Shown: positions 6,882-46,774 of the stretch, one piece after another
Numbering within the stretch: the stretch's first letter is position 1
How the letters are laid out: the number at the start of each line of letters is the position of its first letter
Assembly (NCBI GenBank): GCA_963735035.1
Contig: CAVTJJ010000004.1
Location: 352,001-416,000 of the forward strand
Direction of reading: 5' to 3'
Source of the DNA: an uncultured candidate division Zixibacteria bacterium
GTDB taxonomy: Bacteria > Zixibacteria > MSB-5A5 > GN15 > FEB-12
Length of the DNA stretch: 64,000 nt
Notes under the pieces: generated by a model
What the model saw: the letters and a program-made list of their open reading frames with translations, nothing else
Told to the model about the DNA's origin: nothing
The model's database searches: none
Made by a program: the position numbers and the translations under genes

Positions 6882-7710
6882 CTACGACCAGGCGTCGCCG
6901 AATTCGCCTATATCCGCTATCGCCTCGGCAGTGATCTCACGCGGGATGCCGATATGTTGTTCCACTGCGGCCGCCAGAGCGTCTCGGTCAGCTAGTTGGC
7001 GGGTAGTCCAGTGCGTGCCTTCCGATTCGAGAACTGTCAAATTGTGAATCGCGAGTGATCGACCGGGAAAGAATCGCACCAGCAGCACCGCATTCATAAA
7101 CGTAGCCGCCTCGCGGTAAGAATGGGCGACGACGCCGGAGAAATACTCGATCGAGCGCGGCTGCGGTTTGATCGTGTAGCCGTGTCTCAATTGCCCGTCC
7201 CGAATAAGCTGCATGATCGACCGGCCATCGCCGTCCTGCGGCTTGAGCACGTACCGATCCCGGCCGAGCCCAGTCTCGTAGTCCTCGAGCAAGTCACGCG
7301 GAATAGGCTCCAGAAACGGCGCGGCGTAGCCGGTGTCTACGACATATTCGTGTCCGTCCACAGTGACCAGGTTGACGATATGAACGTCGGGGTTGTTCAT
7401 GTCGCACCCGCACAGCTTTGTCTGATACCCCAGGTGTTCGAGCAACAGGTGCAGGTAGACGTTATTCGTGTAGCAAGTTCCGCCAAAATGATACCGTTCG
7501 ATCCCGTCGAGATAACGTTCGAGACCGGGCAGCTCGCGAAGGTTGTGGCGTTTCAGGTAGAAGAGCTTGGAGACATTCTCGAATGGGATACGGGTCAGGT
7601 GAGCCGTGGTCAACTCGGTCAGTGCTTTGAGGCTGGGTTTCTTCCGGGCTGACTCCCAAGATGTGGAGGTATCGGTCGAAGAGGGTGGAGGGTGGTGGGG
7701 TGATTGACAT
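6882..7710 (-). CDS. Arylamine N-acetyltransferase, frameshifted at about 7647
   Basis: HLTRIPFEN, GGTCY, HIVNLV and VDTGY (Cys-His-Asp triad). The N-terminus (FDRYLHILGV) lies in another frame. Confidence 0.85.
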
Positions 7711-21421: not shown

Positions 21422-22074
21422 ATGATGCAAATCAAGAGTAAAGTAGTATGGGTTATGGGGGGGTGACGCTGGTAGCGCTCGCCTATCTCATTGGCACACA
21501 GTCGGCTGAGTGGATGAATGAGTGGAATTTCAGCCGCCACGCCGATGAGTACCGCACCCAGGTCGCTGACCAGACGGCGGCAATTCTGAGGAAGATGGGG
21601 ACAATCAAAGTGGGTGACACACTGGGGAACTTCCCGCTGGAAGACATCGATGGGAAGTTGCATCTGTTATCGGAACTGGTGACAGATAGGACATTAATTA
21701 CTTACATGAAGCCGGACTGCGATGCATGTCTGGAAGAACTCGAGCGATTGCGAAGCGTCGCCAAAGGCCCGGATGATTACGAGCATGTGATATTGATCAC
21801 CTCGGCCAATCCGTTGCACATGCAGCGCATACGAGAAGATTACGGTCTGGGGTGTGAGATTTTGTACGATAATGAACGACAGTTTGGTGCGGCGTTGAAG
21901 ATACAGTTGTTTCCTTTCAACCTGGTAGTTGATCGCAACAGTGTGGTACAAGAAATTCATGCGAACACGCTTCTACCGGATGACTATGAACAGTTGTTTG
22001 AAGCGGCTCGTTCCGTCACACCCGCGCAGGCGGGTGCCGAGATTATTCGTCATGCTGTGCCTGTCGAAGGGTGA
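21422..22074 (+). CDS. Membrane-anchored thioredoxin-fold redoxin (CxxC); possible frameshift in the G7 tract at 21457-21463
   Basis: KVGDTLGNFPLEDIDGK, PDCDACLEE and FPFNLVVD. The GAGGGAG RBS precedes ATG 21422, which is out of frame by one G. Confidence 0.75.
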
Positions 22075-22199
22075 ATAGGTAACAAATGCAATGCTGCCTG
22101 ACTGTCCGTTCATGATATGAACACAAATCGCATCACATATGAGTCGAGCCGAGAAGAGGTGTTCTCCGCAAATTATGACTCGAGAGGAGGTGATGACAA

Positions 22200-22436
22200 A
22201 TGACTACTAAGAAAACCGTGATCGTCTATACATATTTGTTCCTCGCGGCATTTGCATTTGCCGTAGGATTCAATATGAATGCCAACGCGGTTCCTGGAGG
22301 GTGCTGTGTGCAAATGTGCGACCATCCATATGAGGATTACCCTTCCTATGAAGGCTGTCCTGATCCTATTTATGGCTGTCGTTCTACGACGTGTCGGGAT
22401 TGCATGAATCCTCACACGTGGTTGTGTCCGGACTAG
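22200..22436 (+). CDS. Secreted cysteine-rich peptide (8 Cys)
   Basis: GAGGAGGTGA RBS, 30-aa signal ending ANA, 48-aa mature region with 8 Cys. Confidence 0.8.
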   Translation: MTTKKTVIVYTYLFLAAFAFAVGFNMNANAVPGGCCVQMCDHPYEDYPSYEGCPDPIYGCRSTTCRDCMNPHTWLCPD

Positions 22437-22542
22437 TGTGAGTGAGTATTAAACGGTGCGGCAGTCAGGTGGCGCATATTCTGATTCATGGTCTTGTTCG
22501 TTTGGTAAGTCAGACCTGGGGCGAAGGTACATAGGTGGAGTC

Positions 22543-43680: not shown

Positions 43681-44139
43681 GTGCGCCTTCCAATCCAGGT
43701 AAGCATCTTCATCATTCGGCCGACCCCAGGAAGCGGTCATGAATACTTGATGCTCCACCGCGTGCTCAAGCGACTTTCGTTCTGGCAGCCGGTGACGGGT
43801 GGAGTAGAGTCGGGCGAAACTATCGAACAGGCCGCCCAACGCGAATTGACCGAAGAGACCGGTTTCGCTTCAGACAATTTGATACCTATCGGTTTCAGCT
43901 ATGCTTTCCCGCCCGACGAGTTCTTCAAAGCGATCTATGCCGAACCACCCGATGAAATCGTTGTGCACGTATTTGTCACCCGCATGGCGGTGGGAGCCGA
44001 ACCGAAGATCGATCCAATCGAGCACGATGCTTACCGCTGGTGTTCGTTGGATGAAGCTCTCGAATTGCTCTACTGGTGGGATGATAAAGAGGCGATCAAG
44101 CGGGTAGAGGCGGAGTTGGTATTGGAAAAACGCGGGTAA
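43681..44139 (+). CDS. NUDIX hydrolase (NudB-like)
   Basis: FWQPVTGGVESGETIEQAAQRELTEETG and EHDAYRW. Confidence 0.85.
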   Translation: MRLPIQVSIFIIRPTPGSGHEYLMLHRVLKRLSFWQPVTGGVESGETIEQAAQRELTEETGFASDNLIPIGFSYAFPPDEFFKAIYAEPPDEIVVHVFVTRMAVGAEPKIDPIEHDAYRWCSLDEALELLYWWDDKEAIKRVEAELVLEKRG

Positions 44140-44300
44140 AAAAAGGCAGGGCGGGACTTCCTGTCCCGCCCCGGACATCCCTGCTGAGAGGTTTGCACGC
44201 GCTCTTCCGTAAGGACGTCAAATTCTCCAGCAGCGGAACTGCTGCATTGTTGCCAGCTCCATTGTCATCCCTGATTCTGTAGTATCCTGACCGCTGCTGT
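44138..44300 (-). ncRNA. Candidate CsrA/RsmA-sequestering sRNA (multi-GGA)
   Basis: TGnTATCAT extended -10 at 44311-44303; 8 GGA motifs, several in hairpin loops; GC-rich terminator followed by U7; no ORF. Confidence 0.6.
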
Positions 44301-44361
44301 CTATGATATCAACAACTTTTCTGACAAATTGATCCACGAAGGCAATGTTTTTTTCGGGGGC

Positions 44362-44447
44362 AAAAAAAGAACGGGGCCAGAGTGGTCCCGTTCTCGCGAT
44401 GTGGTTGGGCTGAAATGTTCCAGCAAGCCTTAGTCTCTTCGGCTTTC
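44362..44447 (-). ncRNA. Candidate ~85-nt three-hairpin sRNA
   Basis: TGnTATATT extended -10 at 44460-44452; two hairpins, an unpaired C/A-rich linker, then a terminator followed by U7. Confidence 0.5.
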
Positions 44448-44544
44448 AAATAATATAACACCCAAATGCCGAAAGGGGTTCCAAAAAGTGAGTAATTTGA
44501 TCGGCATTCTCCGATCCACTTGCGCCGGCATAACTGTCTGTCGT

Positions 44545-44754
44545 TCAGTCTTTTACTGGCAGAACATGGATCGCCTTGACAATCAGCCGAACCTCATCGC
44601 CGGCCTTTAGATGCATCTCGGAGACCGACTCTGAAGTAAGAACCGAAGCCATCTCGACCGGCCCGGTCACGTCGAACTTCACGAGCGACATGATATCGCC
44701 GGTCTTGACCGACTTCACCTTCGCCTTAATCTGGTTTCTTGCGCCGTATTTCAT
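44545..44754 (-). CDS. TOBE / Mop molybdate-binding protein
   Basis: MKYGARNQIKAKV...SVLTSESV..MHLKAGD...KAIHV; AGGAG RBS. Confidence 0.88.
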   Translation of the reverse strand: MKYGARNQIKAKVKSVKTGDIMSLVKFDVTGPVEMASVLTSESVSEMHLKAGDEVRLIVKAIHVLPVKD

Positions 44755-45092
44755 ATTGAACTCTCCTGTATTGGAACATAGTCCGTTGATCTACTGACTC
44801 AAATAACATACCCCCAAAAATAGTCTTCGCCATAAAAAAAGTTCGTAGGGCAGAACCCTCGACGCTTCGGCGAGTGGTTCTGCCAATTGGCCTATCCAGC
44901 AAACATGGCAGAACCGATAAACGGTCGATGGTTCTGCCCTACGTTAACTATGGGTGCCCCGGTTAAGTCGGGGTAAAGACAGAGGGAGTGAAGCGGGGCA
45001 AGACAGAAGGTCGCTGTCATGCTGCGCGACGTCGGGACAAGTACCTTCTTACAATATCTTGTCGAGCACCAGTGCACGGTCTATATTCGCAC

Positions 45093-46774
45093 ATGCAGAC
45101 CGCCCTACACATCGCCGCCCTCGTGAATCAGCTCAAACACGAAATCGTGGGTGGGCGTTTGATCGCCACCCAGTTCTACAAGAAATCGCGTACGGCGCTG
45201 TTCATCGTCCAGAAGGGACACGAGCGGCTGGCGTTGGCGCTCATCTATCATCCCGCCGGGTCGGGTTGCTTCTGCGTACCGGCTTCAAAGATCAGGCTCG
45301 ATACGACCGAGAAACCATGGCCGATCTTCAATCTTGAAGAGGCAGACATCGAGGATGTCACCCAGCCGGAACTGGATCGGATCTTCGAAGTGATCCTGAC
45401 ACGTGATTCCGAAAAGATGCGCCTGGTGTTCGAAGTACTCGGACCCAATGGAAATATTTGGTTGATCGGAGAGGACGGCACCCGGAAGGGAACACTTCGC
45501 AATCGCAAGTATGACAAGGGTGACAAATACAACGCGCCCGTGACCGTTGACCGGATCGATCCATTCGCAATTACTTCGGAATTGCTGGTCGCCCGCATGT
45601 CCGAGCAGGCCGGGCGGTCGCCTCTGGCGGCGCTGAAGGCGGTCCTGGTCGGATTCAATGACACCATGACCCGCGAGGTGCTGACCCGCGCCGACTGCGC
45701 CGTGGTTCACCCCGAAACACTGACCGCTGGTCAGGCCGATGCTCTCGTTCGAGCGGTCGCGAGATTGCCGAACGATTCCGCGCGCCTCAGGCCGGCTATC
45801 TGTACGAACTTCGCGGCGCAGTTGAAGTATATCCGTTTCAGTTGAAAGCGGTGGACAAGCAATCGGAAAAATTCCCGTCATTGTCTCTGGCGGTTATGGA
45901 GATGACATCGCGTCAGCAGACAACTATCACCGACACCGATGATGAGCAACGTCTGCTTAAGGCGGTGGCCTCGGCCATTAAGCGGCAGGAACGACTGGTG
46001 GTCAATATCGAAGCCGATGTAGCCAAGGCCGCCGATTTCGAACGATACAAGCGGCTTGGCGAACTTCTGCAGCTCAATCGGGAACGTCTGAAAAAGGGGA
46101 TGAAGTCGATTGAAGTTGAAGACGTCCTGAGTGAGTCACCCTCTACGATCCGTATCGAACTCAATCCGGCCGTTTCACCCAGCGATAATATCGACGAGTA
46201 TTTCCGTCGCCACCGCAAAGGCCGCGAAGGAGTGGAACTGCTTCGTCGTCGGTTCGAGATCGTCACCGGTGAACTGGAATCACTTCGCGGAATGCAAGCT
46301 GAGCTCGAAAGCAACTTTGAGAATGCGAGCCAGAAATATCAAGCAGAGCTGGCGCCGCTTCTGCCACGTGAACAGGGTAGGCGAGATGTTCAACCGCGAC
46401 TCCCTTATCGAGAGGCGCGGCTATCGAGTGGCCTGACCGTCTACATCGGACGCGATGGCGCTGACAACGATCGGACTACATTCGAGTTCGCCCGTCCGTA
46501 TGAGCTCTGGTTTCATGCCCAGCAATGTGCCGGTTCGCACGTAGTTATGAAGTACCCCAACAAGTCGTTTGAACCGTCCAAACGGGAAATTGAAGAGACG
46601 GCCTCAATAGCCGCCTGGCACAGTAAGGCCCGCAACGACAGCCTGGTTCCGGTAGCCTACGCCGAGCGCCGATACGTACGAAAACCTCGTAACGCCAAGC
46701 CGGGGCTCGTAACAGTGGAGCGGGAAAAATCGGTGATGGTGGTTCCAAAAAAGGAGCTAAGTGCTGATAAGTGA
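45093..46774 (+). CDS. rqcH: NFACT-family ribosome quality control protein (RqcH/FbpA), frameshifted at about 45758
   Basis: NFACT-N (LDRIFE, FEVLGPNGN), coiled coil and NFACT-R (IGRDGADND, LWFHAQQCAGSHV, VRKPRNAKPG). Confidence 0.85.

Follow-up and report, generated by a model that had tools for sequence, protein, structure and literature searches.

RNA antagonists of CsrA are documented for Gammaproteobacteria, whereas fliW-bearing bacteria are described as using the protein FliW instead, and fliW is anticorrelated with BarA-UvrY (PMC7652899, available in part, which holds wherever it is cited below). CsrA is also bound by base-pairing small RNAs (sRNAs) with at least two GGA motifs, McaS and GadY, and in Bacillus subtilis it promotes the pairing of SR1 with ahrC (PMC7652899). 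The locus described here lies in a stretch of 64,000 nucleotides, the window (positions 352,001 to 416,000 of contig CAVTJJ010000004.1), from G000, a Candidatus Zixiibacteriota metagenome-assembled genome that is 96.9% complete. At 44138-44300 on the minus strand of the window is a predicted small RNA, RNA-B, which looks like a genuine, conserved, independently terminated and presumably transcribed regulatory sRNA gene of ~160 nt. Comparison with its relatives suggests, with a probability that we put at roughly 0.4, a low-valency CsrA-binding sRNA that would have a second function based on a conserved core devoid of GGA. A sequence-only reading of the window had proposed a CsrB/RsmZ-like multi-GGA sponge, and that interpretation is partly supported.

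The RNA-B locus

RNA-B can be regarded as a real gene-like unit because of its fold (z -3.55), its covarying terminator stem (6 of 11 pairs) and a gene order that is kept over 5 genera. Its parts and flanking signals are the following.

44138..44300, minus strand: RNA-B, predicted small RNA of ~160 nt, from its fold, its terminator and conservation that starts at ACAGC(A/G)GCG; the 5′ end is predicted
44228..44299, minus strand: variable 5′ domain, closed in the minimum free energy (MFE) fold by the helix CAGCAGCGG (44299-44291)/CCGCUGCUG (44236-44228)
44265..44274, minus strand: site A, UCAGGGAUGA, whose GGA lies in the large loop at the apex of the 5′ domain (unpaired probability 0.73-0.89)
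44174..44219, minus strand: conserved 3′ hairpin, with helix 1, GACGUCC (44219-44213)/GGAUGUC (44180-44174), around the core, from covariance-model matches
44187..44206, minus strand: invariant core AAGAGCGCGUGCAAACCUCU, in 15/15 orthologues, where AGAG/CUCU pairing leaves the loop CGCGUGCAAAC
44175..44183, minus strand: site D, CAGGGAUGU, equal to the 3′ nine bases of the CsrA consensus RUACARGGAUGU obtained by SELEX (ligands evolved systematically through exponential enrichment)
44147..44173, minus strand: terminator hairpin of 11 pairs, 9 of them G-C, with the loop AGGAA (44162-44158), site E, from terminator prediction
44138..44144, minus strand: U7 tail, from the sequence
44309..44320, minus strand: motif AAAAGTTGTTGA, with AAAAARTTGTTGMA as its consensus, 8-9 nt upstream of the conserved start of the RNA; a candidate non-canonical promoter element
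44303..44311, minus strand: extended -10 of the sequence-only reading, TGATATCAT, present in G000 and not conserved

Orthologues were compared as a set of 15 distinct sequences, 7 from genomes and 8 further ones from metagenomes. The latter are what is new among 11 loci found by a pattern scan of metagenome contigs, in which L043 repeats L040, L050 is approximately L045, and L049 is the genome copy of G190. Eight distinct sequences are here called genus-level; G000, G001 and G002 are of one genus, and other genera include G014, G016 and G115. Since all these orthologues are mutually related, the counts made over them are not independent and none is to be read as a probability.

The sequence from 44300 to 44138 has an MFE of -65.2 kcal/mol, compared with -51.6 +/- 3.8 kcal/mol for 200 dinucleotide shuffles, of which 0/200 are as good. 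This bears out the structured minus-strand sequence of ~160 nt of the sequence-only reading, and the terminator that it described, with an AGGAA loop and U7, is found with its stem at 44173-44147 and the U7 at 44144-44138. Covarying stems in homologues, which the same reading had named as a check, are seen in part. Compensatory changes occur across orthologues in 6/11 pairs of the terminator helix, and an alifold of 9 genus-level rows gives 10 pairs for the helix that closes the 5′ domain, in which G-C pairs are replaced by A-U. Helix 1, paired in 100% of alignment cells, has 5 invariant pairs, 3 one-sided changes and 0 compensatory ones; all 3 substitutions are on the strand opposite GGAUGUC, and L044 has a further variant of the 5′ strand, GAUGUCC. 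The interior of the 5′ domain evolves fast and differs even among G000, G002 and G001 of the same genus, and conservation at the 5′ end starts at ACAGC(A/G)GCG across the 8 genus-level sequences.

On one side of RNA-B is a gene for a TOBE-domain protein (44545-44754, minus strand), on the other a convergent gene for a NUDIX protein (43681-44139, plus strand). Across 5 genera the locus keeps the same order, NFACT (divergent), TOBE, RNA-A (a second small RNA, described below), RNA-B and convergent NUDIX or fumarase (fumC), and in 7/7 genome loci the next gene downstream is convergent, whether it encodes a NUDIX protein, a fumarase or a tsaD-like protein. With such conserved synteny and no downstream gene on the same strand, RNA-B is not a 5′ leader, and a riboswitch reading is ruled out likewise.

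A BLAST search with the locus finds it in 5/41 relatives, G000 itself counted. The covariance model of the 3′ module, which gives 53-104 bits in 7 genomes, matches 4/151 genomes of a phylum-wide sample, all four in the family of G000, and 0/96 genomes from other Zixibacteria families; within the family strong matches occur in 7/108 genomes that span 5 genera. Weak matches in G001 (C46), G013, G190 (C517) and G005 (E 0.006-0.01) comprise the terminator half only and were left out of the orthologue count. Judged by these searches, the RNA-B family is restricted to a single clade within one family of the Zixibacteria. Rfam 15 gives 0 matches at gathering score in the whole window, and at E up to 10 there are 4 chance-level matches between 43900 and 44800, none of them to Csr/Rsm RNAs, so that the match to a different known family by which the sequence-only reading could have been overturned was not found. 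By sequence, RNA-B makes up a new family of sRNAs whose general kind is already known.

The extended -10, TGATATCAT, that the sequence-only reading placed at 44311-44303 is present in G000 and is not kept in G002, in G001 or in the metagenome orthologues. What is kept, in G000, G001 and G002 and in L040, L041, L042, L045 and L048, is the motif AAAAARTTGTTGMA. As the tRNA promoters of G000 are canonical TTGACA-N17-TATAAT, the motif is not a standard promoter; it is a possible non-canonical promoter element of RNA-B.

On a single metagenome contig two loci 1.1 kb apart, L047 and L048, comprise a full RNA-B and a second, 5′-truncated copy that abuts NUDIX-like coding sequence; the comparison identifies this arrangement as a local duplication of the 3′ module.

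GGA sites that are conserved

G000 RNA-B has 8 GGA, with starts at 44287, 44270, 44260, 44228, 44208, 44180, 44166 and 44161. In the predicted ensemble 3/8 are clearly unpaired, namely those in UCAGGGAUGA, in ACGGAAG and in the terminator loop. The sequence-only reading had put four GGA at hairpin apices. That is right for the terminator loop, and UCAGGGAUGA is in a large loop; ACGGAAG occupies an internal loop, and GCAGGGAUGU forms the 3′ side of a helix of 7-9 bp and is mostly paired (unpaired probability 0.0-0.49). Of the multiloop that it drew with further GGA motifs under a 9-bp helix, the helix CAGCAGCGG/CCGCUGCUG is there in the MFE fold, while AUGGAG is predicted to be paired (unpaired probability 0.05-0.08), as is GCGGGAC.

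Site E is the terminator loop. Its unpaired probability is 1.0 in G000 and about 1.0 in the orthologues, and a loop GGA of A(N)GGA type is found in 13/15 of them, in comparison with 8/155 terminator-like hairpins of the G000 genome, from which the base rate was taken. The GGA is kept in 8 different loops: AGGAA, AAGGAU, AGGGAU, AUGGAU, CAGGAAG, GGGAU, AGGGAGUC and AGGGACU. The terminator hairpin of L045 is identical to that of L040, and its loop GGA is unpaired. Site D has GGAUGUC in 15/15 orthologues and CAGGGAUGU in 11/15, the latter being the CARGGAUGU portion of RUACARGGAUGU, the consensus from SELEX (PMC7652899). Spacing between sites D and E is 19-24 nt in the 12 orthologues measured, and so inside the range of 10-63 nt, with an optimum of >18, that one CsrA dimer can bridge (PMC7652899).

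Other sites are kept less widely. Site A, as UCAGGGA(A/U)G, is in 6/8 genus-level sequences and lost in G001 and G002; CUGGAGA is kept in 6/8 of the same set, and (N)GGAAGAG in 7/15 orthologues. Two GGA sites, D and E, are thus conserved family-wide, one of the two being predicted paired. Sequence comparison indicates that some GGA of RNA-B are conserved in CsrA-type contexts, as the sequence-only reading required of homologues; this holds for sites E, D and, at genus level, A, while the other GGA vary and the high count is largely species-specific.

Csr system of the organism

The sequence-only reading had asked for csrA and fliW in the genome, and both are present. In G000 csrA (PF02599, 82.8 bits, at G000:C4:1519983; 105-residue product at G000:C4:1519980-1520297) is in a late flagellar cluster with the order flgA-H-I-J, flgN, flgK, csrA, flgL, fliW, a TPR/glycosyltransferase gene and flagellin. 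The predicted CsrA has a C-terminal extension past its 53-residue domain. In the family csrA is found in 103/108 genomes and in 73/73 of those of good quality. Hfq and ProQ were not found in G000, at its completeness of 96.9%, and so CsrA is left as the known global RNA binder.

The flagellin leader (L036 11470-11610; G000:C4:~1525470-1525610) contains, in 6/6 genomes, a hairpin whose stem covaries and whose loop is A(A/C)GGAA, together with a Shine-Dalgarno (SD) GGA, and a conserved long-range helix GGAAGUG...CACUUC, also in 6/6. It is probably a textbook two-site CsrA design, predicted here in a candidate phylum. By sequence, RNA-B has terminator loops that correspond in type to this probable CsrA site of the clade.

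The core and the RNA-C paralogues

The most conserved element of RNA-B is a core without GGA, AGAGCGCGUGCAAACCUCU; the pattern AGAGCGCGUG(C/U)A(1-4)CCUCU is in 15/15 orthologues and the inner AGAG/CUCU pairs never vary in the alignment. The core recurs at G000:C4:~136360 and, in degenerate form, at ~166850, within loci of a paralogous RNA, RNA-C (in G000 C4:~136200-136520, L023/L024, minus strand, and C4:~166790-166940, L035). RNA-C is in 11/108 genomes of the family, including 7/7 of those with RNA-B. Shared by the two RNAs, in the same order upstream of the terminator, are GCGCGUGC, CCUCU and, in the genus of G000, GGAUGUCC. RNA-C differs in having GAGAGCCA, the anti-SD-like GUCCUCCUUUCC, only 0-2 GGA, terminator loops of UGCCCA type and a signal-peptide gene as neighbour. 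Within RNA-C GAGAGCCA, CCUCU and GUCCUCCUUUCC are invariant (12/12 loci for GUCCUCCUUUCC), GCGCGUGC is in 11/12 loci, and the single-stranded tail CCUCCUUUCC is invariant too. Each copy has its own terminator on the same strand as the core and always lies beside a gene that encodes a signal-peptide protein (MRKLSFF..., to which Pfam gives a weak cadherin-like match), from which the copy points away. A search of four paralogue loci against Rfam at E up to 1 returned nothing relevant, and pairing of RNA-C with the mRNA of its neighbouring gene has no support (z -1.9 to +0.5 over 11 loci).

Because the core is shared with RNA-C, that of RNA-B appears to be inherited from a GGA-poor, CU-rich sRNA family, and the GGA loop seems to have been acquired after the core.

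How RNA-B may act

If RNA-B is a low-valency CsrA-binding sRNA, it would consist of two modules, a fast-evolving 5′ stem domain and an invariant 3′ hairpin with terminator. One CsrA dimer would bridge two sites, CA(G)GGAUGU (site D) and the terminator loop with A(N)GGA (site E), and in the genus of G000 one or two extra dimers might bind site A and the linker or internal-loop GGA motifs. Such binding may titrate CsrA from its targets, the flagellin leader among them, or else recruit CsrA as helper for the second function. The latter would reside in the non-GGA core, in the loop CGCGUGCAAAC next to CCUCU, would come from the CU-rich paralogues and would probably be base pairing.

Several observations weigh against CsrA binding as the role of RNA-B. 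The best conserved element, the core, is non-GGA and common to CU-rich RNA-C with its 0-2 GGA. Site D is predicted to be mostly paired, with an unpaired probability of <=0.26 in 14/15 orthologues, and its conservation may for that reason reflect helix 1 alone. Site E has no loop GGA in G014 and G115, where the terminator loops end in ...CCCA like those of the RNA-C paralogues. Shuffling, done for G000 and six other genome orthologues, finds GGA enriched in G000 alone (P 0.014; the six others P 0.34-0.78). In a motif scan that followed the AGGA/ANGGA counting of Kulkarni et al. 2006 (available in part), over 2,302 region-strands with windows of 150 and 180, the RNA-B region shares first place with 7 others at window 150. 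While csrA is near-universal in the family (103/108), RNA-B is rare (7/108), and FliW-type systems are not known to use RNA antagonists. As to expression, sigma-54, sigma-28 and canonical sigma-70 promoters were sought upstream of RNA-B by eye and by scan and none is conserved, and a search of sequencing runs for 43700-44800 gave no RNA run and only 14 DNA runs, whose word shares were small.

The main alternative, in our view only a little less probable, is an ordinary trans-acting base-pairing sRNA whose core pairs with mRNAs, probably at ribosome-binding sites, and whose GGA are structural or incidental with no CsrA role. Most terminator-ended sRNAs of ~160 nt act through pairing, which favors it at the outset. 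It accounts well for a core that is the best conserved element in 15/15 orthologues and is present in 11/12 RNA-C loci, for the invariant anti-SD-like GUCCUCCUUUCC that RNA-C adds in 12/12 loci, for the predicted pairing of site D and for the six genome orthologues without GGA enrichment. Yet there is no convincing target. A genome-wide search for core complementarity by 8-mer seed and RNAduplex, and searches at 6,986 SD-bearing start regions and with an 18-mer at <=4 mismatches, gave paralogue loci and chance-level matches only; GGAGGUUUGCAUG was found at two start codons. Further, CCUCU is itself paired with AGAG in the consensus fold, neither Hfq nor ProQ was found, and it is left unexplained why terminator loops of 8 different sequences retain a GGA when the base rate is 5%.

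A possible path from pairing sRNA to decoy for CsrA

A bolder extension of the low-valency CsrA-binding reading, which we consider unlikely, is that a fliW-bearing non-proteobacterial lineage evolved de novo an RNA that antagonizes CsrA, with RNA and protein antagonism coexisting. A CU-rich sRNA of RNA-C type, with 0-2 GGA and a UGCCCA terminator loop, would have been duplicated and have lost its anti-SD tail. GGA would then have been gained stepwise, from 2 in G014, G016 and G115, by way of the terminator-loop GGA (13/15), to 3-6 at genus level and 8 in G000. If so, the emergence of a sponge RNA could be followed through intermediates that still exist. A CsrA-binding RNA in Zixibacteria would provide an evolutionary series that leads from base pairing to a decoy for a protein, would be an RNA input into a FliW-type Csr system, and would break the division between Gammaproteobacteria with RNA and others with the FliW protein, as that division is drawn in the available part of PMC7652899.

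That RNA-B is already a dedicated high-capacity sponge of CsrB/RsmZ type, with most of its 8 GGA being working CsrA sites, is improbable. The number of GGA in G000 is indeed above chance, as the sequence-only reading claimed. GGA density in its ~165 nt is 4.8 per 100 nt against a background of 1.5 per 100 nt; windows of 174 nt genome-wide have a mean of 2.69 GGA with 0.6% holding at least 8, and dinucleotide shuffles have means of 4.1-4.7 (P = 0.036 and 0.014 in two runs). Likewise, 6 AGGA/ANGGA motifs give RNA-B its tied top place among the 2,302 region-strands at window 150, and the series from 2 GGA (G014, G016, G115) through 3-6 (genus-level) to 8 could be a stepwise gain. At window 180, the same region ties for ranks 5-13, and 197/33,258 crude intergenic windows of 170 nt (~44 loci or strands) likewise reach 8 GGA. 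The density is in the tail of the distribution but without separation from the background.

Orthologues speak against such a sponge. In the 15 of them, with RNAs of 152-267 nt, GGA counts are 8, 4, 3, 6, 4, 6, 5, 6, 6, 2, 4, 7, 2, 2 and 2; G002 and G001, though of the same genus, hold 4 and 3, and four GGA of the G000 5′ domain are replaced there. Since enrichment by shuffling is seen in G000 alone, the multi-GGA character is not a family property, and the count of 8 appears from these sequences to be largely species-specific. With 2-7 GGA in the other orthologues, no enrichment in the six tested and two family-wide sites, the sponge claim of the sequence-only reading is not supported. Nor is it helped by 3/8 GGA being clearly unpaired, by the lack of a match to the Rfam CsrB, CsrC or RsmX/Y/Z models, by an invariant non-GGA core that would have no role in a pure sponge and is shared, as the strongest conservation, with GGA-poor paralogues, by csrA in 103/108 genomes against the RNA in 7/108, or by FliW in a complete FliW-CsrA-flagellin module.

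There is very little to recommend a third alternative, an RNA-RNA decoy in which the GGA motifs would base-pair with the tails of RNA-C, CU-rich and anti-SD-like, or with other CU-rich RNA. All 7/7 genomes with RNA-B also carry RNA-C, the single-stranded tail CCUCCUUUCC of the latter is invariant, and RNA-B shares the RNA-C core with GGA motifs in place of the CU tail. On inspection there are only generic purine-pyrimidine matches of 4-6 nt and no extended complementarity, and the proposal is one of inference. Scarcely credible is a non-functional RNA-B, either a terminator and spacer relic of an RNA-C duplication or a tiny peptide gene (16 codons, AUGACA to UGA, in the 5′ domain), for which the lack of an identified promoter, the equal length of the open reading frame (ORF) in G000 and G002 and the partial second copy 1.1 kb from a full one can be cited, set against a module and position conserved over 5 genera, covariation in two helices and a terminator that points away from the only neighbor genes able to use it. 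The 16-codon ORF has no spaced SD, and G001 does not keep it.

Neighboring RNAs and other observations

Directly upstream of RNA-B is a second conserved small RNA of ~90 nt, RNA-A (44362-44482 of the window, minus strand; element ~44450-44362), with its own terminator at ~44393-44369 followed by a U run. In 4/5 genomes read it is preceded by GGAAC-N18-GTT, which resembles promoters of extracytoplasmic function (ECF) sigma factors. RNA-A carries a conserved single-stranded ACC(A/G)CAUCGC(G/A)A. There is a GGA in its terminator loop in G014, G115, L046 and possibly G190, and not in the genus of G000. By BLAST it is found only in that genus, in 3/108 genomes, the copies in G014 and G115 having been recognized by eye. 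In G016, at about 1030-1330 of L018 and upstream of the RNA-B copy, the place of TOBE and RNA-A is taken by a direct repeat of ~200 nt, TCTTCCCCCTCTCCC...GAAGTCGAAGTGCGA, which may be a small mobile or repetitive extragenic palindromic (REP)-like element.

The NFACT/RqcH homologue at 44988-46774 (plus strand) is in two ORFs of 285 and 310 residues with a 4-nt overlap. Its first ORF is ~290 residues in G115 too, and the split may therefore be a natural one and not a fault of the assembly. Another AGGA-rich region of the window, 22055-22475 on the minus strand, was considered as an sRNA and rejected, being the antisense of a 78-residue gene with a good SD. Among 49 tRNAs that ARAGORN finds in G000 are tRNA-Pyl (C2:21792, a candidate call) and tRNA-SeC (C6:279330).

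Even on the ordinary reading RNA-A, RNA-B and RNA-C are maybe the first conserved sRNA families of this uncultured phylum. A literature search that combined Zixibacteria and sRNA found no paper, and a broader one had nothing on the phylum among the matches listed.

Comparison with known systems

Like the Csr/Rsm sRNAs, RNA-B is intergenic, ends in a terminator and has GGA in A(N)GGA loop contexts in a genome with csrA, and ~160 nt with 8 GGA is in the range of Rsm RNAs. Unlike them, it has two family-wide GGA sites and its conservation is dominated by an invariant non-GGA core, it matches their Rfam models in neither sequence nor structure, and it is found in a fliW-bearing non-proteobacterial phylum. 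The GacA box is palindromic; the conserved upstream AAAAARTTGTTGMA is unlike the GacA/UvrY box, and no such site is recognized at RNA-B.

The base-pairing sRNAs have no homology to RNA-B either. McaS and GadY of Escherichia coli depend on Hfq, which was not found in G000, and SR1 of B. subtilis also encodes a peptide. What McaS and GadY would have in common with RNA-B is few GGA, at least two, on an RNA with another functional region (PMC7652899). SR1 is an analogue in that CsrA is there the helper of a base-pairing sRNA in a FliW-type organism, which is what is proposed as one possibility for RNA-B (PMC7652899).

The FliW-CsrA-flagellin switch, known from hag of B. subtilis and from flaA of Campylobacter jejuni, where the mRNA itself titrates CsrA, has its counterpart in G000 in flgK-csrA-flgL-fliW...flagellin and the GGA leader. 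That switch needs no sRNA, and RNA-B would be an extra RNA input, of a sort for which the available part of PMC7652899 describes no case in fliW-bearing bacteria. By analogy, and as those sRNAs are presented in the available part of the same source, McaS, GadY and SR1 are closer in logic to RNA-B as proposed here than are the Rsm/Csr RNAs.

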